DNA of 30,267 nucleotides from a virus. The notes under the pieces were generated by a model. That model was not told the DNA's origin, searched no databases, and worked only from the letters and a program-made list of their open reading frames with translations. The stretch is from UHGV virus genome UHGV-0229465; one strand, 5' to 3'. The position numbers and the translations under genes are program-made. How positions within the stretch are numbered: the stretch's first letter is position 1; each line of letters begins with the position of its first letter. Shown here in pieces: positions 20,482 through 29,949 of the stretch.

Positions 20482-21029
20482 TGAGGACGATTGAAGCCAT
20501 GCAGCGACAACTCCTCGGCCTGATTGGGCGGGCCGTGGTGAAAAGCATCAGTGCCGCCACGAAATGTCAGACCGTGGATGTGTCCCTGATTGCCGGTGAA
20601 CCCAAAGCCGGGGTTGAACATCTTGAACCCTACGGTTTTACCGCAAGGGCAAACAGCGGTGCGGAAGCGGTGGTGTTGTTTCCGGATGGCGACCGTTCTC
20701 ATGCGGTGGTTGTTACGGTGTCGGACCGTCGCTACCGCCTGAAAGGGCTGCAAACGGGGGAGGTGGCTGTCTATGACGATCAGGGGCAGTCCGTGACGCT
20801 GACCCGGGAGGGGATCGTGGTGGACGGTGCAGGTAAAACGATCACGTTTCGCAATGCGCCTAAGGCACGTTTTGAAATGGACCTGGAAGTGACAGGACAG
20901 GTGAAAGACCTGTGCGACTCCGGCGGCACCACCATGTCAGCGATGCGGCTTGCCTATAACGGCCATCGTCACAGAGAGAACGGTCAGGGCAGTAACACCG
21001 ACAAACCTGATAAAGCGATGGAGGCATGA
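20481..21029 (+). CDS. Baseplate spike protein (gpV-like)
   Basis: 182 aa; AGGAGG RBS; position in Mu-type baseplate module. Confidence 0.75.
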   Translation: MRTIEAMQRQLLGLIGRAVVKSISAATKCQTVDVSLIAGEPKAGVEHLEPYGFTARANSGAEAVVLFPDGDRSHAVVVTVSDRRYRLKGLQTGEVAVYDDQGQSVTLTREGIVVDGAGKTITFRNAPKARFEMDLEVTGQVKDLCDSGGTTMSAMRLAYNGHRHRENGQGSNTDKPDKAMEA

Positions 21030-21454
21030 TGGAACTGTGGCTGACGGTGAACGGTAAACGCACCTGCGCCAGCGCACCGCTGGATCCGCTGACCCGCGCC
21101 GTTGTGATTTCCCTGTTTACCTGGCGGCGGGCGGAGCCTGATGATAATGCCGACGTCCCGATGGGATGGTGGGGGGATACCTGGCCTGCGGTACAGAATG
21201 ACCGTTACGGCTCCCGACTGTGGCTGCTTCAGCGCAGCAAACTGACCAATCAGCTGGTGCAGACGGTAAGGGGGTATATCCGCGAATGCCTGCAATGGAT
21301 GATTGATGACGGCGTGGTGTCCCGTATTGATTTGGATATCCGCCGTACCGGGATTAATGAACTGGGTAACAGTATCACTCTCTGGCGTCGTGACGGACCG
21401 GTAATGATTTCTTTTGATGATCTGTGGAGTGCGATAACGCATGGCGGACAGTGA
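21026..21454 (+). CDS. Baseplate protein (GP46 family)
   Basis: 142 aa; position between spike and J-like genes. Confidence 0.75.
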   Translation: MMELWLTVNGKRTCASAPLDPLTRAVVISLFTWRRAEPDDNADVPMGWWGDTWPAVQNDRYGSRLWLLQRSKLTNQLVQTVRGYIRECLQWMIDDGVVSRIDLDIRRTGINELGNSITLWRRDGPVMISFDDLWSAITHGGQ

Positions 21455-22499
21455 ATTTCAGCGCCCGACGCTGGCAGAAAATATCAGTATGCTCCGTAAC
21501 GATTTATTCGCCAGGCTGGACGTCAGCGACACGCTCCGGCGCATGGATGAAGACGTGCGGGCAAAGGTGTATGCGGCGGCGCTGCATACGGTTTACGGTT
21601 ACATCGATTATCTGGCAATGAACATGCTGCCTGACCTGTGCGATGAGTCCTGGCTGGCGCGACATGCTGCGATGAAACGGTGTCCGCGCAAGGGGGCCAC
21701 GGCTGCCAGCGGGTATATGCGCTGGGAAGGTGTCAGCGATGGCCTGAAGGTGACTGCCGGGAGCGTGATTCAGCGCGATGACCTGGTTCAGTACACGGCA
21801 ACTGCTGATGCAACCAGCTCCGGTGGTGTCCTGCGCGTGCCGATCACCTGCTCAACTACAGGCGCGGTCGGTAACGCTGACGACGGTACGGCATTAATCC
21901 TGGTCACGCCGGTGAATGGTCTGCCGTCTTCCGGTGTGGCTGACACCCTGACAGGCGGATTTGATACTGAAGAGCTGGAAACGTGGCGCGCCCGCGTCAT
22001 TGAGCGGTATTACTGGACGCCGCAGGGCGGGGCTGACGGGGACTATGTCGTCTGGGCTAAAGAAGTGCCCGGCATTACCCGCGCATGGACATACCGTCAC
22101 TGGATGGGAACGGGAACTGTCGGTGTGATGATTGCCAGCAGTGACCTGATTAATCCCATTCCGGAAGAATCAACGGAAACGGCGGCAAGACAACATATCG
22201 GGCCACTGGCCCCGGTGGCAGGCTCTGATTTGTATGTGTTCAGGCCGGTGGCACATACGGTGGATTTTCATATCCGCGTGACGCCGGACACACCGGAAAT
22301 ACGGGCTGCCATCACCGCCGAGTTGCGTTCGTTCCTGCTGCGTGATGGTTATCCGCAGGGAGAACTGAAGGTGTCACGTATCAGTGAGGCGATTTCCGGT
22401 GCGAACGGGGAATACAGCCATCAGTTGCTTGCACCGGCGGACAATATCACCATTGCGAAAAATGAACTGGCGGTTCTGGGGACGATTTCATGGACGTGA
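21441..22499 (+). CDS. Baseplate J-like protein (Mu gp47-like)
   Basis: 352 aa; position and size. Confidence 0.8.
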
Positions 22500-23074
22500 C
22501 AAACGATGATTACATCCGTCTGTTGTCGGCACTGCTGCCCCCTGGTCCGGCGTGGTCAGCCAGCGATCCGGCGATTGCCGGTGCAGCACCGTCATTAACC
22601 CGCGTTCATCAGCGTGCGGATGCCCTGATGCGGGAGCTGGATCCGCGCACCACCACTGAACTGATAAACCGCTGGGAGCGTCTGTGCGGCCTGCCGGATG
22701 AATGTATTCCGGCGGGAACGCAGACCCTTCGCCAGCGTCAGCAACGGCTGGATGCGAAGGTTAATCTGGCGGGCGGCATCAATGAGGATTTTTACCTTGC
22801 ACAGCTTGCTGCCCTGGGCAGACCAGACGCCACCATCACGCGATACGATAAAAGCACGTTCACCTGCTCATCGGCCTGTACTGACGCAGTGAATGCGCCG
22901 GAATGGCGGTATTACTGGCAGGTCAACATGCCAGCCGCCACCAACACCACCTGGATGACATGTGGCGATCCCTGTGATTCCGCACTGCGTATCTGGGGCG
23001 ACACCGTTGTCGAGTGTGTGCTTAACAAACTCTGCCCGTCGCATACCTACGTAATTTTTAAATATCCGGAGTAA
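22490..23074 (+). CDS. Tail protein (Mu gp48 / e14 YmfQ-like)
   Basis: 194 aa; directly precedes the tail-fibre gene as in e14 and Mu-like tails. Confidence 0.75.
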
Positions 23075-23077
23075 TCC

Positions 23078-23725
23078 ATGCATCGTATAGACACGAAAAC
23101 CGCGCAGAAGGATAAGTTCGGCGCGGGTAAGAACGGTTTTACCCGTGGTAACCCCCAGACCGGCACGCCAGCCACCGATCTGGATGATGACTACTTTGAC
23201 ATGTTGCAGGAGGAGCTTTGCAGCGTGGTGGAGGCATCCGGTGCCAGCCTGGAGAAGGGGCGGCACGACCAGTTGCTTACCGCGCTTCGTGCGCTGCTGT
23301 TAAGTCGCAAGAATCCGTTTGGCGATATCAAATCGGATGGCACGGTGAAAACAGCTCTCGAAAACCTTGGTTTGGGAGAAGCGGCAAAGAGGAATGTGGG
23401 GACAGGAGAAAATCAGGTACCGGATATGAACAGCTTTGGTAACTCATTGACCGCCAATGGATACCAGAAATTACCTGGGGGGATGATTATTCAATGGGGG
23501 AGTTTTTCTGTCTCACCAACCGGAGGAAGTGTTGGAACAGTTGATATAACATTACCTGTAGCTTTCCCTGCTGCTTGTCGTTCGGTAAACGCTCTTATTT
23601 CAACTAATGATCCTTCTGCCCGTTCTGTGGGCTTTGATATTGGAAGTACCAACAGAACTAAAATCAGATTTACTTACACTTCTGCTACAACAAATTCAAT
23701 TTACTGGATTGCTGTGGGGTATTAA
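23078..23725 (+). CDS. Tail fibre protein: constant N-terminus fused to the currently expressed variable C-terminus (Sv)
   Basis: GGAG RBS; crossover site lies inside the gene at codons ..LENLGLGE..; downstream part is AT-richer than the constant part. Confidence 0.8.
23355..23380. repeat. Invertase crossover site (gix/pix/hix-like), left
   Basis: ctctcgaaaaccttggtttgggagaa is an imperfect 26-bp palindrome resembling the recalled hix/gix consensus; inverted copy at 25213-25238 shares the 14-bp ttggtttgggagaa. Confidence 0.7.
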
Positions 23726-23727
23726 CT

Positions 23728-24159
23728 ATGGAAAAGACATATTATTTTAATCCCTCTGATTCGGGATTTTATATTTCACCAGATAGCCAAACCATTCCTG
23801 AGAACGCTACGAAAATAAACTTTACTATTTATTCTGAGTTCGCAGGAGTTGCATGGCCTGATGGTAAAATACTTGGTTCAGATAAAAATGGTTTTCCAGC
23901 ATGGCAGGATGCGCCACCACTTACCAGCGAAGAATTAATCTCAATCGCTGAATCAAATAAACAGCGATTAGTTAATCAGGCCAACGAATACATGAACAGT
24001 AAACAATGGCCTGGTAAAGCGGCGATTGGTCGTCTGAAAGGTGAGGAACTGGCGCAATATAATTTGTGGCTGGATTATCTGGACGCACTGGAACTGGTCG
24101 ATACTTCCAGTGCGCCAGATATTGAATGGCCTACTCCTCCGGCAGTTCAGGCCAGATGA
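23728..24159 (+). CDS. Tail fibre assembly protein (paired with the expressed fibre tip)
   Basis: 143 aa immediately after the fibre gene; C-terminus ..LWLDYLDALELVDTSSAPDIEWP typical of tail-fibre assembly proteins. Confidence 0.75.
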   Translation: MEKTYYFNPSDSGFYISPDSQTIPENATKINFTIYSEFAGVAWPDGKILGSDKNGFPAWQDAPPLTSEELISIAESNKQRLVNQANEYMNSKQWPGKAAIGRLKGEELAQYNLWLDYLDALELVDTSSAPDIEWPTPPAVQAR

Positions 24160-24733
24160 CATCCGGCGCGGTACTGGTATCTGTTGCCGTCACCGCGTCA
24201 ATGTAATCCAGCACAGTGTTAAGTCGGGTGGTCTCTGCCTGCATCAGCTTCCGCCCGGCCTGCAATTTCAGTTGAATCAGACTAATGGAAGCCATTGCAG
24301 TATCAATCAGTGACTGACGTTGTGCTTCTGCCGCGTCTACTGCGGCGCTATGCTGTGTCTCAGTATCCGTCACCCATTTCTCACCATCCCATTTATCGTA
24401 TGGCGTTAACGGGGCGATAGTGGTTGTTTTTTCGGGGTAATCACCCGGAGTTGTGATTTCTTTGGCGTCTCCCGTTTCGGTGTTATAGACGATTTCACCG
24501 CGATGGTCTGGTACATATTCCCATGAGTTAAAATCTGCAGAGCGGCAGATTGCATAACCAGCTTTGTAGGTGCCTGGAGCATCTAAACAGGAATATGCCG
24601 GAATGCCGACACCAACAGCAAGATATTCAGTTGAAGCTGAAATATACTCCCGACTCATGACGTCAAAGTTATAAACAGTGATTTCTCCTGCCATAGTGGC
24701 AATTAATTCACTGTTTAATTCTGCGTTATTCAT
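24131..24733 (-). CDS. Tail fibre assembly protein, alternative copy (inverted orientation)
   Basis: 200 aa on - strand converging on the + strand copy; C-terminus ..LDYIDAVTATDTSTAPDVIWPELP parallels it. Confidence 0.75.
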   Translation of the reverse strand: MNNAELNSELIATMAGEITVYNFDVMSREYISASTEYLAVGVGIPAYSCLDAPGTYKAGYAICRSADFNSWEYVPDHRGEIVYNTETGDAKEITTPGDYPEKTTTIAPLTPYDKWDGEKWVTDTETQHSAAVDAAEAQRQSLIDTAMASISLIQLKLQAGRKLMQAETTRLNTVLDYIDAVTATDTSTAPDVIWPELPEE

Positions 24734-25266
24734 TATGCAGCCCTCACAATATAGTTAAAAGCGACATTTCGTGGGCGTGTTTCATTCGCACCTGCAGGTT
24801 TAGTCGTTGCCGCAACAACACCACCCTCTGTAATAGCCGGGTTGGGAATTGGGTAATTATCGAAGTCAATGGCTGGAGACAGGGGCGTGATTTGTTTTAA
24901 AATCGTGGTGCCTGTAAAACTTCCCAGAGTCTGGTCGTTAGTTCGTGAAGTCCAGATTCCCCAATAGTGGTTATGACTGACAATCGCACCGTCCTGAAGC
25001 GTTAATAATCCCCTTCCGTTATCCACTCCACGTCCGTCATCCCAGCCACGAATAAACTCACCGCGTAAATCAGGTAATTTATTTGTCGGATAAGCCTTTG
25101 CCAGTTCCGGGTATTCTTCAGCAGAAAAAGCTGCTCCGTTGCATTTCAGCCAGCCTGTTGGCGGAGTGGCTGAAGGCCACGGAACAGGCACACCAACGGG
25201 TAATGCTGAGCCTTCTCCCAAACCAACGTTTATGAAAATGTAGAAATAACGAGCAAATGGCATCAT
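24733..25266 (-). CDS. Alternative tail-fibre variable C-terminal cassette (Sv'), silent in current orientation
   Basis: - strand ORF with receptor-binding-tip motifs (..LPDLRGEFIRGWDDGRGVDNGRG..); its 5' end contains the right crossover site encoding ..INVGLGEG.., in frame with the constant fibre part after inversion. Confidence 0.7.
   Translation of the reverse strand: MMPFARYFYIFINVGLGEGSALPVGVPVPWPSATPPTGWLKCNGAAFSAEEYPELAKAYPTNKLPDLRGEFIRGWDDGRGVDNGRGLLTLQDGAIVSHNHYWGIWTSRTNDQTLGSFTGTTILKQITPLSPAIDFDNYPIPNPAITEGGVVAATTKPAGANETRPRNVAFNYIVRAA
25213..25238. repeat. Invertase crossover site, right
   Basis: ttctcccaaaccaacgtttatgaaaa; reverse complement matches the left site over its right half; 55 bp upstream of the invertase start. 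Confidence 0.7.
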
Positions 25267-25292
25267 TCCTGCTTTTGTCAGGGAGATCTACC

Positions 25293-25631
25293 ATGCTTAT
25301 TGGCTATGTACGTGTGTCAACAAATGACCAGAACACAGATCTACAACGTAATGCGCTGAACTGTGCAGGATGCGAGCTGATTTTTGAAGACAAGATAAGC
25401 GGTACAAAGTCCGAAAGGCCTGGACTGAAAAAACTGCTCAGGACATTATCGGCAGGTGATACGCTGGTGGTCTGGAAACTGGACCGACTGGGGCGCAGTA
25501 TGCGGCATCTTGTCGTGCTGGTGGACGAAGATTTAGAGCATGAGTTAATTAATGGCGGTTTGTCCCACTATTGTGGTTGGTATCCCCATAGAACAGGGCA
25601 AGATATAGTTGTTCATCATGTTCACTCATAA
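25293..25631 (+). pseudogene. Serine DNA invertase (Pin/Gin/Hin/Cin family), truncated: catalytic N-terminus only
   Basis: GGGAG RBS; MLIGYVRVSTNDQNTDLQRNAL...LVVWKLDRLGRSM matches recalled Gin/Pin N-terminus with catalytic Ser; similarity is lost after ~residue 85 and the ORF stops at 112 aa (family ~185-190 aa), where AT-rich DNA begins. Confidence 0.7.
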
Positions 25632-26031
25632 GCAGAACTTCGGTGCTTGGCGTTATATTGAACCTTCTGAGGGATTCTGAGGATGAGTGGAATGTCGCGT
25701 TCTGATTCATCAGTAAGTAGGGAAAGATAGACTTTATGCGTCATTGACGGTGAAAGCGGCTATACATAGAAACTACCGACCAGCATCAGCCTGAAAATAT
25801 AGGCAGATAGAAAAAGTGGTCCGCACTTGCAACTAATGTTAAACCGTTTGTAGATATTGTGCTTCGGGTACAATTCTGTCCTATCGTTGCACTTAGCTAA
25901 CTACTCTATATTTAATGCATTGTAATAAAGATATAAAAGTTGTAGTGTTGAGGGTCCAATTGCACATAAGAGTGCAAATTTGAGTTTGGCCGTAGGCTAA
26001 TGATGAGAGTATAAGTTGGATTGGGTGCACT

Positions 26032-27129
26032 ATGAAGAAAAAAATAGCAGATCTACTAGCCGTTAAAACAAATATATTCGAAGTGTTCATTGTTGCGGTA
26101 TTAATTGCCTTGGGCGTAAATATACTGTCATCAGGCGTTGTTGGTTATTTTAACTTGTCATTTTTGAAAATGATTGTTGTTGGTGCGCTACTAATAATTT
26201 TAGGTGCCACAATCTTTCTGCGTAACGCCTATCCTATGAATAATGGGAAATATGATTTTGAGGGGGTTGTGTGTTTAGACAATGAAAAAAAAGAGTTGAT
26301 ATCAATTGAAGGCTACGATTTTTCCGAAGAGGTTAGCCGTTACCTAAAAGGATTATGCGCGGAAAATAAGGCTATTCATAAATCATGGACTGAGGGGCCA
26401 ATTGGTTATGCTTTTGATTTTAAAGGGAAGGGGATAAATAGCAAAAAAATGAAAGCAAATGCACTATTTATCGAGGCGATTGAGTATTATGTTTTAAGAA
26501 AACTTGCTCTTCATTTAAGTAGCTATTTTAATGATGATGAATCTTTTTCCGATGATTATTTGGTTAAACTAGATAGGAAAAGTATTCCTGATGTTCTTAT
26601 GGGGAATAGATTTATTGATACTTTTTCTAGAGCTATGGATGAACGTGAGCAATTTATGGATTATAGTTCTTTACCATCTATAGGTAAAGTTGTATATGCA
26701 TATGGCAATGGAGGCGCAATTTTTGACCATTTTGAAATAGTTCTTCCCAAAAGTAGTTCGCTCACAAGAGAGAGCGACTCTAGTATAAGTATTGTTACTA
26801 AAAGATTTAAGATTAATTATCGCCCTGTGTTCGAGGGATTCGGGGCTAATCTACCAATGAAATTTGGAAATCTTTATTTGGGTAGAGAGTTTAATTCATT
26901 TTCAACTTATTCAGTAGGTTTGGTAGTTACAGTGGATTTTAATGCCAAGTCTTTATTAACAACTAAGGGATGGGAATATTATTGGTGGCTTGATTCGTTT
27001 TTGGGAGAATTGGAACAATCATTTTCTAAAAAAATGTTTTTATCTAAAATATCTTGGGAGCAAAATGCAGCAATGTTTCTTATGCTTGAAAATAAGAGTA
27101 AAATGCAGCACAAGAGAGAGAATTTTTAG
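26032..27129 (+). CDS. Membrane-anchored hypothetical protein (two N-terminal TM helices, ~300-aa cytoplasmic domain)
   Basis: 365-aa ORF in very AT-rich DNA; promoter-like TTGGCC-18 bp-TATAAG upstream; Lys-rich N-terminus then two hydrophobic helices; no recognisable catalytic motif. Confidence 0.6.
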   Translation: MKKKIADLLAVKTNIFEVFIVAVLIALGVNILSSGVVGYFNLSFLKMIVVGALLIILGATIFLRNAYPMNNGKYDFEGVVCLDNEKKELISIEGYDFSEEVSRYLKGLCAENKAIHKSWTEGPIGYAFDFKGKGINSKKMKANALFIEAIEYYVLRKLALHLSSYFNDDESFSDDYLVKLDRKSIPDVLMGNRFIDTFSRAMDEREQFMDYSSLPSIGKVVYAYGNGGAIFDHFEIVLPKSSSLTRESDSSISIVTKRFKINYRPVFEGFGANLPMKFGNLYLGREFNSFSTYSVGLVVTVDFNAKSLLTTKGWEYYWWLDSFLGELEQSFSKKMFLSKISWEQNAAMFLMLENKSKMQHKRENF

Positions 27130-28074
27130 ACAAATAAAAGCAGTCTAAATATCTACATACAGGAAAATGTTCGCATCTGTCTAATGGTGAACAATAGTGG
27201 CTGTAAAAGCTGTAATTTGGGTTCGCTATGTGCTGCATGCATCGGTTGGGCTCACTGCTTATAACAGACATTAATTTTATGACAGAAAGACATTCATGCT
27301 AGTTGGAATATGCATAAAACTCCCTCTACACTGTGTTTGTATACAGTATTATTTTACTGTGCAAATAAGCAGCATTATTGTTTTCTCTGTTCAAGTAAAA
27401 AGAAATGGATACACTCACAAAGATTTTGATGGTGGCACGATAAGTGTCTTCGTTTTTATGAGAGCAGTTGTTGTGGCTTCATCACTAGTACTTAGCATCA
27501 AGACTGATTTCTTGCTGTTGGTTCAAGTACTTTATCCCATAAAAGCCCACATCTGTGGGCTTTCAAGTCACTAGGGCACCGCGGCTCCTTTGCGTATCTT
27601 TTTTTGTATCCTCACCGTCTGGTCGGTGTCCTGCTTTGGCTGCTAACTTGCTGTTTTTGTTGGAATTATCCTTACGCCACCCAATCATGATTGGTGGAGC
27701 TGGCGGGAGTTGAAACCGCAGGCACGTCGTATGCAAGAACGTGCTGCGGTTGGCTGGTGAACTTCCAATAGTGCGAGTATTGAATGATTTCCAGCTGTTA
27801 TAGATTTTACGTATTTTTTGTATGAGAGGATTTGCATCTCCTCCCACCGATCCTCCATGACTTTACTCCACTGTCTATAGGGCTGCTGTGTGCTAGAAAC
27901 GGACATTTTGGTCAACTGAGGGCATGGAAACTTGTTCAATAAATAACGTATAATCAATTGAAAATAAAATGAAATAATTGTAATATCAAAATTCAAAGCC
28001 CGTAGTGAGTATGATTATCTATTCTTAATTTCAACCTCTTAATTCTAAATAAGTTAGACAAATCGGAATGGCAG

Positions 28075-28716
28075 ATGAAAATTAAGTTAACACCAATCTG
28101 GTTATGGATAAAACAATATCAACATCCCCTTAGAGTATTGGGGGGGATTTTTTTCGGGGCCGCTTTGATAGCAGCTTTTTTTTGGATATCAGGATTTGAT
28201 ATAGAACCTATCGCATTCGCTCTGGGAATGCTTAGTTCATTGTTCTTAGCCAGCCCATCGGTAGCAGAATATTTTTTACCAGAACGTAAACCTGTCAGAG
28301 ATATGACATATGAGGAAATCTTAAATTTCATACCCAAAACTGAACCATCTCAAGATTGGCATGGGATTTCAAGGGAATGGGCTAGCGAACGATTCCTTAA
28401 AGAAGACCCACGTCTTCGTTTTCGAGCCAAGTTCATTGATGAAGGAATTCAATGTGAAAATTTTATAGAAGATTGGGCTAACAATCATCCAGATCCCAGA
28501 GCAACTGGATATTGGTATGAGCTTTATTACGACGGAGCATTCCTAGACAGGTTTTTATTGGTATCTGTGGATGGCGGTAGAGCGGATATTCCTCCACCAA
28601 AATTACAAACTAAAGAAATTAGCTTACTCAATTATCATGTTGCGAAAATACATGACACCTCTGGCACGTTAGATGAGTATATTAAACGATCTGGTTTAAC
28701 TATTGCAAAAACATAA
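28075..28716 (+). CDS. Membrane-anchored hypothetical protein (two TM helices, ~150-aa C-terminal domain)
   Basis: 213-aa ORF, AT-rich; helices at ~20-40 and ~45-63; convergent with the next gene. Confidence 0.55.
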   Translation: MKIKLTPIWLWIKQYQHPLRVLGGIFFGAALIAAFFWISGFDIEPIAFALGMLSSLFLASPSVAEYFLPERKPVRDMTYEEILNFIPKTEPSQDWHGISREWASERFLKEDPRLRFRAKFIDEGIQCENFIEDWANNHPDPRATGYWYELYYDGAFLDRFLLVSVDGGRADIPPPKLQTKEISLLNYHVAKIHDTSGTLDEYIKRSGLTIAKT

Positions 28717-28788
28717 TAAGTAACTATTCATTTTTGTCCTGAGCGGGAGGATTAAAACCTCCGCTCTCCGATTCATCACTACAGAGTA

Positions 28789-29547
28789 TTAACATTCATG
28801 ATGCTTAATTTCCAGATCGGAAATTGCAATCATTCTTATTTCTTTCAATGCACTATCAATTGCTAATCTTATTCTTTGCCCATAATCATCTGGTTCTTCA
28901 TAATCCAGTGGAGACGGTTCTAAGCCAATATTTTCGACTAACTCCTCTAATTTTATAGTTACATCAGTATTCAAAAGAATTGCTTTTGTTATTAATATTT
29001 CAGTTAACGATATCATTGCAATGCTTAATTTTTGTTGTAATTCTTTGTTTTTAGTTTGGACGTCTTTATCATTCATTGAGTTCTCAATATCTGCTTGAGC
29101 CTGCTGAATTTCTTGGTAAAATTGTTTTTCTTGCTCTTCATTAAAATATGGCTGGTAACTGCTTGCAATCCATCCTGGAATCATATGAAGTTCAATTATA
29201 TGAAATTCATTGTCTGCCCATTTTTTAATTGCTAGCAATTGTGCATAGATGAATTCATACATATCATATTTTTTTTGCCAAATTTGTTGAGAGATCCATA
29301 TCTCAGATGTTATTTTTTTCTCTATATCTTTAATAGTAACTGTGTTTATAGATAATTGTTCCCGTAGGGTTTCGAAGTTAGAATTGGTTGCAGAAATTTT
29401 AGCCCATTCTGTAATTATTGAAACTAGGAAACTCATTGCTAGGGCTGCGATAACTACGGCGAGACTTAACCAGATAATTTCTGCTGTCGAGAAATTTGAT
29501 GACTGTAATGCCTTAATAAGATCAAGCAATTGCTTTTCTGTAAGCAC
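28789..29547 (-). CDS. Membrane-anchored hypothetical protein (one TM helix, helical/coiled-coil C-terminal domain)
   Basis: 252-aa ORF on - strand; GTG start with GGGGAG RBS; one hydrophobic helix near residues 22-46 then Glu/Gln/Lys-rich helical region. Confidence 0.55.
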   Translation of the reverse strand: MLTEKQLLDLIKALQSSNFSTAEIIWLSLAVVIAALAMSFLVSIITEWAKISATNSNFETLREQLSINTVTIKDIEKKITSEIWISQQIWQKKYDMYEFIYAQLLAIKKWADNEFHIIELHMIPGWIASSYQPYFNEEQEKQFYQEIQQAQADIENSMNDKDVQTKNKELQQKLSIAMISLTEILITKAILLNTDVTIKLEELVENIGLEPSPLDYEEPDDYGQRIRLAIDSALKEIRMIAISDLEIKHHEC

Positions 29548-29949
29548 AGGTTACTCCCCAAAAAATATTTGTTATGATTCAATTGATTACGCTAGGTTTT
29601 CTATTGTTCAAACAAAAAATAAAACACCACTGTACACCCATCAAAATTATATGGATAGATTCTTTATAGCAAAATTATGATCTGACAACATGATATGGTT
29701 CGAAGATGTTTTTATGGTAGAAAGGTATGCATGTAGGGTATAGGAGGTCGTGAAAGAAAAGAAGACTTCTGTACAGTTTGTCATCACGTTTATCTTCATC
29801 GGCTATGCAAGTCGTAATACAAGGTGGGACAAAACTGAGACACATAAGGCCTCACAATGGCTTGCAAGGCTTTACATGTTTTGATGTGGTGGGACGTGTG
29901 AGCGCAGTGTTGATGGGGTAATTCTTTGAATTAGAAACGGATTCTTATA

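Follow-up and report, generated by a model that had tools for sequence, protein, structure and literature searches.

In the viral genome UHGV-0229465 (30,267 nucleotides, the whole of which we call the window), we characterized a tail-fibre region that holds two alternative fibre tips between a pair of inverted 26-bp sites, followed by the remnant of the DNA invertase gene pinE. The region lies after ymfQ, a Mu gp48-type baseplate gene (22490-23074). The tail-fibre gene (23078-23725, + strand) encodes 215 amino acids, the last 85 of which form a Gp53-like C-terminal domain. Its constant 5' part, codons 1-96 (23078-23366), stays fixed and is the part that can be joined to either tip; PHROG tail-fibre N-terminal matches cover residues 1-102, and the DNA is 97-98% identical to K-12 stfP and other e14-type prophages up to 23381-23388. 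The expressed variable tip follows on the same strand (23381-23725; Pfam Gp53-like_C, E = 2.2e-18). Two nucleotides past the fibre stop begins the tail-fibre assembly gene of this tip, of 143 amino acids (23728-24159, + strand; Caudo_TAP, E = 4.7e-30; PHROG 188).

The opposite strand carries the alternative set. It comprises a TfaE-type assembly gene of 200 amino acids, silent in the present orientation (24131-24733; Caudo_TAP, E = 4.8e-30; PHROG 105), and an alternative variable tip (24733-25212; Pfam Collar, E = 9.3e-16), now detached from the constant part. This tip is read within a StfE-type open reading frame (ORF) of 177 amino acids (24733-25266, - strand), which includes a fixed leader of 14 codons beside the pin gene (MMPFARYFYIFINV, 25227-25266, - strand) with its own ATG at 25266.

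Compared by sequence, the tips show no relationship (E = 0.73), and the two assembly proteins resemble each other only in the last ~68 residues, with 35% identity. Solved structures related to the tips also differ: for the Gp53-like tip, the putative tail fibre 4MTM (E = 7e-9) and an R-type pyocin fibre; for the Collar tip, the T4 gp37 tip 2XGF (E = 1e-16) and short tail fibres. An earlier sequence-only reading of this DNA, made from its letters without database searches, had noted that the expressed tip is AT-richer than the silent one and suggested separate origins. The composition is as described, with a GC content of 42.9% in the expressed tip and 42.8% in its assembly gene against 49.4% and 48.4% in the silent counterparts (56% in the constant fibre part), and separate origins fit the unrelated sequences, the different Pfam domains and the distinct structural relatives. 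The convergent assembly genes overlap by 29 nucleotides (24131-24159). An 18-nucleotide inverted repeat at 24069-24086 and 24195-24212 corresponds to homologous C-terminal coding (LDYLDA and LDYIDA) and is not a separate element.

The left crossover site, of pix type, occupies 23355-23380 (CTCTCGAAAACC-TT-GGTTTGGGAGAA; the TT at its centre falls on 23367-23368), and the right one occupies 25213-25238 (TTCTCCCAAACC-AA-CGTTTATGAAAA; the AA at its centre falls on 25225-25226). Both are imperfectly palindromic with a 12-2-12 layout, and the half-sites match at 9 and 8 of the 12 positions, respectively. In inverted orientation the two sites agree at 21 of 26 positions and their central dinucleotides are mutually complementary. 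Counting both dinucleotides in, the invertible segment spans 23367-25226 (1,860 bp). The sequence-only reading had proposed two 26-bp palindromic sites sharing a 14-bp core in inverted orientation. This was right in position and in sequence: the core TTGGTTTGGGAGAA is exact in both, at 23367-23380 on the + strand and at 25213-25226 on the - strand. With up to two mismatches allowed, 0.18 occurrences would be expected in the window and two were found, both exact. GLGE is also encoded in frame by both sites, as had been noted: it forms residues 98-101 in the + strand fibre and residues 15-18 in the - strand ORF.

An alignment to known crossover sites had been named beforehand as a check. Both sites are identical at 26 of 26 positions to the crossover sites of the P segment of the K-12 prophage e14, and the left site matches Mu gix, taken from the Mu record and likewise of 12-2-12 layout, at 18 of 26. 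They match what we take to be the hixL sequence at 19-20 of 26 positions. In prophages with other cassettes or in the other orientation, homology breaks at 23381 on the left and 25212 on the right. A looser core, AAACCNNGGTTT, searched with up to one mismatch, had no matches in the fibre region besides the two sites, so that no extra crossover sites of a multiple-inversion system were found. The Min system of plasmid p15B and the shufflons also vary the C-termini of fibres or pili through site-specific inversion, but among six or more crossover sites, unlike this window with its two.

We inverted the segment in silico by reversing 23367-25226 with cuts at the central TT/AA. The result was an in-frame fibre of 260 amino acids that joins the constant N-terminal part to the Collar tip, and both forms are identical through residue 101. 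The stop codon of the fusion overlaps the ATG of the 200-residue assembly gene (tfaE) as ATAATGA. Thus, the predicted fusion to the alternative tip is in frame, the out-of-frame outcome named beforehand as a refutation did not occur, the constant part ends about where it had been placed (near codon 100; the crossover dinucleotide falls in codon 97), and inversion also switches to the alternative assembly gene, as the sequence-only reading had expected.

Both orientations of this exact cassette pair occur in nature, with breakpoints at the sites. The in-silico fusion is identical at 260 of 260 residues to the annotated fibre of Escherichia coli 00-3076, where the segment is flipped. Compared with RM10466, strain 00-3076 has 100% identical flanks of 3,520 bp on each side of an inverted segment of 1,870 bp that is 99.9% identical, and the alignments overlap within a 20-bp repeat. 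A protein of 132 amino acids annotated as gp53-like in 00-3076 is the counterpart of the chimera of leader and Gp53-like tip that inversion would generate here. Among 5,426 complete E. coli genomes, and counting places that covered at least 80% of the query, the cassette pair was found in 8 genomes in the orientation of the window and in 20 inverted.

Taken together, we assign the region, with a probability of about 90%, to an e14-type P segment, that is, a switch of the Gin/Cin/Hin/Pin (Din-family) serine invertases at the end of a myovirus-type prophage tail module. The invertible tail-fibre cassette proposed from the sequence was upheld in each element tested: sites, in-frame fusion, natural flipped counterpart and tip divergence. 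The inversion system itself is already known, including crossover sites identical to those of K-12 e14, so that as a switch nothing here is new, and RefSeq annotation of the same switch exists in many genomes. The P segment and PinE of the cryptic K-12 prophage e14 were reportedly described by Plasterk and van de Putte in 1985. Inversion of the e14 segment in K-12 was shown by whole-genome sequencing and polymerase chain reaction (PCR) (Goldberg et al. 2014, PMC4272514), and also by quantitative PCR, with the repeats quoted as TTGGTTTGGGAGAAGG (Kirigo et al. 2025, PMC12529663).

Besides the crossover sites, the window shares with K-12 e14 the gene order (ymfQ, fibre, tfa, tfaE in reverse, tip in reverse, pinE), the constant fibre part (97% DNA identity) and the 5' part of pinE (94% DNA identity). 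It differs in the length of the segment (1,860 vs. 1,797 bp), in the Gp53-like tip, a different allele with no megablast match, and in tfaE, which is 88% identical. Moreover, pinE is cut at codon 79, mcrA is replaced by AT-rich DNA with a gene for a protein of 365 amino acids, and the late region looks complete whereas e14 is cryptic. The prophage here adjoins the yagP/pao region, whereas e14 sits in icd. Thus, only the P region is of e14 type and the prophage as a whole is not e14 itself, because at its right end the window aligns colinearly with loci next to the yagP fragment and paoD, and mcrA is absent. In RM10466, e14 lies in icd with pinE and mcrA intact, and it is colinear with 21000-25525 of the window at 98.4% identity. 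In the P regions of other prophages (loci L002, L004 and L013), similarity of 97-99% falls to 87-95% or to nothing at 23381 and 25212; since the drop lies exactly at the inner edges of the sites, whole cassettes have been swapped between prophages as units.

The layout also resembles the G segment of Mu and its invertase Gin, with a constant S N-terminus, 26-bp gix sites within the fibre gene, an alternative tip and its chaperone encoded in reverse, and the gene for the invertase directly to the right. The NLGL motif is encoded by the site in Mu as well, at a comparable place in the fibre, and PinE and Gin are 80% identical. Unlike here, the Mu segment is of ~3 kb, its constant part has 170 codons, its tips are unrelated to those described here and gin is intact. 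The Hin/hix system of Salmonella likewise uses a serine invertase and sites of 26 bp, and its 65-bp Fis enhancer lies inside the invertase gene, ~100 bp from one of the sites; however, Hin flips a promoter instead of a coding 3' end and is not a phage fibre system.

The feature that separates this locus from its relatives is the truncated invertase gene, which the sequence-only reading had not mentioned, any more than it had named the known e14/Pin system. Codons 1-79 of the 184 of pinE remain (25293-25528, + strand), and 78 of these 79 residues are identical to an intact PinE from another e14 allele. Past 25528 the frame continues for 33 unrelated codons to a stop at 25631. The window copy covers only positions 2-88 of the 145 of the Pfam Resolvase profile and has no HTH_7 domain, whereas intact PinE shows Resolvase at residues 3-135 and HTH_7 at 138-181, and its residues 1-181 align with the Gin structure 3UJ3 (E = 5.5e-95). 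From this domain content we conclude that the remnant cannot be the flipping enzyme, because helix E and the helix-turn-helix DNA-binding domain are lost, although the catalytic serine region is kept. The 3' part of pinE, which should still be present had a simple insertion split the gene, was sought throughout the window and was not found. The locus is a substrate of the Din family, yet not a complete autonomous member of it, because it lacks a complete adjacent invertase gene, and the switch is not self-sufficient within the window.

The same break in pinE was present in 12 of the 5,426 genomes, where RefSeq flags the remnant as a partial pseudogene. It was found at three chromosomal sites: beside a yagP fragment and the pao genes, beside prfC and beside torT. 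The gene for the 365-residue protein followed the broken pinE in all 12 genomes. Because the same break and the same following gene recur at three chromosomal sites, the truncation characterizes a phage lineage rather than being a local accident.

What is left of pinE, its 5' end, hardly differs from the intact allele and contains a candidate recombinational enhancer. Two 15-mers of the Fis type G-N13-C lie at 25314-25328 and 25363-25377, with their centres 95.5 and 144.5 bp from the centre of the crossover. These are the offsets of the candidate Fis sites in Mu gin, and the block is well conserved with Mu. The enhancer of Gin lies inside gin. The Hin enhancer measures 65 bp, has a Fis site at each end and is placed ~100 bp from a hix site (PMC3798978). 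The block at 25314-25377 fits that layout and, from its position and conservation, may be a Fis enhancer.

In the mechanism that we propose, the fixed, promoter-proximal start of the fibre (codons 1-96) would run into the left crossover site. Invertase dimers at both sites, 1.86 kb apart, would cut at the central TT/AA; acting with the enhancer, bound by Fis in the 5' part of the invertase gene, they would then rotate the DNA and rejoin it. In the exchange, the Collar tip with its 200-residue assembly protein would take the place of the Gp53-like tip with its 143-residue one, changing the fibre from 215 to 260 amino acids. In this prophage, the sites and the enhancer would remain a usable substrate, and the enzyme would have to come from elsewhere in the genome.

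Strains of the truncated lineage carry signs of such flipping. GPEC1210 and GPEC1035 differ from GPEC1209 by inversion of a segment of 1,851 bp that is 99.9% identical, with flanks that are 100% identical over 1,171 and 3,617 bp, and pinE is truncated in all three. In FDAARGOS_1337 and RX24, where pinE is likewise truncated, assembly proteins with identical accessions lie in opposite orientation. The crossover sites are intact in all of these genomes. Because near-identical strains with truncated pinE differ by a clean inversion, flipping in trans after the truncation is the simplest reading. DNA similar to the 3' half of pinE is present in 64% of complete E. coli genomes, and in K-12 the PinQ invertase of prophage Qin inverts the e14 segment when overproduced (PMC12529663). 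There, too, one prophage's invertase flips the segment of another, as inferred for the truncated lineage; however, K-12 has an intact cognate pinE, which is missing here. We give an even chance that flipping in the present genome, if there is any, relies on a Din-family invertase from outside this locus, for example the pin of another prophage. For the lineage as a whole, 12 of 5,426 genomes at three integration sites, we tentatively propose an orphan switch that keeps sites and enhancer and flips through the invertase of another prophage, with a likelihood that we put just short of even.

These interpretations have to be weighed against others. The inverted repeat might be a chance match, or an RNA or DNA hairpin with no role in recombination, and short inverted repeats are indeed frequent in general (19 pairs were listed). 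Nothing further speaks for this explanation, and its probability is negligible given the expectation of 0.18 for the core, the full identity of both sites to proven crossover sites, and natural inversions that terminate exactly at them. It is also very improbable that the orientation differences arose by RecA-dependent recombination between the 20-bp repeats or by replacement of the whole region from another prophage. In favour of this, a query of fibre, P segment and pinE matches a median of two places per E. coli genome, and the unequal flanks of RX24 and FDAARGOS_1337 (97.5% identical on the left, 99.8% on the right) indicate some recombination nearby. However, the breakpoints lie exactly inside the 26-bp sites in every pair, both flanks are 100% identical in the GPEC and RM10466/00-3076 pairs, and repeats of only 20 bp (95% identical) offer too little length for RecA to recombine them efficiently; in K-12, the same repeats have been shown to undergo site-specific inversion (PMC4272514, PMC12529663). 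A more serious contender, with an appreciable probability though somewhat below one half, is that the segment no longer inverts here, that the tip and tfaE on the - strand have been left behind as silent relics, and that the differences among relatives predate the truncation or arose outside it. Residues 80-184 of PinE are gone, DNA-binding domain included, no second invertase was found within the 30-kb window, and a K-12 strain deleted for pinE was reported to be locked in the non-inverted state despite pinQ and pinR (PMC12529663), so that trans flipping at native expression can be very inefficient. A frozen segment agrees poorly with the clean inversion between GPEC1209 and GPEC1210/GPEC1035, which share the truncation and 100% identical flanks, with the second such pair, RX24 and FDAARGOS_1337, and with the state of the locus, which shows no decay in the 26-bp sites, the two silent ORFs or the enhancer block, all of them intact.

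Apart from the locked K-12 deletion strain, some further points weigh against flipping in trans as the explanation. The evidence for inversion comes from relatives of this genome, and the enhancer is assigned by position and conservation. An intact second invertase was not located in the flipping genomes of the truncated lineage, for which the best place per record was listed; the sole hint of one is that the GPEC genomes have a second place resembling pinE, and RX24 and FDAARGOS_1337 have no such place at megablast sensitivity. Besides, the left flank of this last pair is only 97.5% identical, and recombinational replacement is possible in its case. We therefore see about an even chance of a live switch in the present genome; otherwise, if it is not flipped in trans, it is frozen in the state with the Gp53-like tip.

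With respect to its biological role, the Mu G and P1 C switches classically determine the host range of the virion. The same role is plausible here because the late region of this prophage looks complete, in contrast to that of cryptic e14 in K-12: positions 1-23000 of the window encode a Q antiterminator, a KilA-N protein, large terminase, capsid, sheath, tape measure, a DNA circularisation protein and a Mu-like baseplate. A role in host defence, alone or in addition, appears unlikely on our assessment. It would require that, after inversion, the chimera of leader and Gp53-like tip acts in the manner of StfE2 and blocks the adsorption of other phages. The architecture is the same, with the 14-codon leader starting from its own ATG on the - strand, the 132-residue chimera is annotated in flipped strains, and StfE2 of K-12 e14 was reported to block adsorption of phage T2 (PMC12529663). 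However, the Gp53-like tip has no megablast-level match (~85% nucleotide identity) to the K-12 tip, and translation signals look poor, with a Shine-Dalgarno-like AGGA only 0-3 nucleotides from the ATGs. No promoter-like signal stood out above chance either –the promoter and terminator scan of 22400-26100 gave counts at chance level and was uninformative– and the late region, with its terminase, capsid, sheath, tape measure and baseplate genes, makes a role in virion host range plausible.

If the orphan switch were true, the fibre choice or decoy output of one prophage would be controlled by the enzyme of another. Its confirmation would mean that a substrate has outlived its enzyme and relies on cross-talk between prophages, in line with PinQ of Qin flipping the e14 segment and altering T2 sensitivity (PMC12529663), and it would matter for predicting host range and phage defence from genome sequence alone. 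Novelty is limited to this interpretation, and the truncated invertase is only a modest point of interest.

The DNA after the remnant differs from that of e14. Homology to intact e14 ends at 25525-25528, and from 25530 to the end of the window the GC content is 37%. An AT-rich module (25529-27812, + strand) replaces the 3' two-thirds of pinE and the mcrA of e14, and contains the 365-residue ORF at 26032-27129. This protein has membrane helices at its N-terminus and no Pfam, PHROG, PADLOC or NCBIfam match; placed where e14 has mcrA, its gene is a candidate moron or defence gene. Within the wider AT-rich block (25529-29700), this ORF and those at 28075-28716 (+ strand) and 28789-29547 (- strand) gave no Pfam, PHROG or NCBIfam match. 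A weak match of a 213-residue ORF to PADLOC PDC-S50 (E = 6e-4) was not trusted. The stretch at 27450-27996 on the - strand, with a local GC content of ~48%, a strongly negative AT skew and overlapping ORFs at 27563-27847 and 27685-27996, resembles the remnant of a gene with a frameshift. Near 27812 the shared phage module comes to its end, and the right end of the window corresponds to the yagP/pao neighbourhood. No tRNA genes or Rfam families were found in the window.

Other members of the truncated lineage vary around the same module. In SCU-301 (L014, beside torT), the P segment, the truncated pinE and the gene for the 365-residue protein stand behind a DUF2612 protein instead of YmfQ; given this different set of baseplate genes, the module has moved between phage backbones. 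The right crossover site of SCU-301 has one substitution, in the outer half-site. In H1827/12 (L005), the left site and the constant part of the fibre are gone, and terminase-region genes abut half of the segment, whereas in Eco_23-2667 (L006) the fused fibre gene is disrupted; both are decayed versions within the truncated lineage. Finally, RefSeq gives the name integrase to the fused tail-fibre protein of GPEC1035, GPEC1210 and TUM12357 (WP_264117929.1, WP_310995103.1; positions 868-1614 of L011 and of L012 and 962-1708 of L013), which looks like a misnomer.

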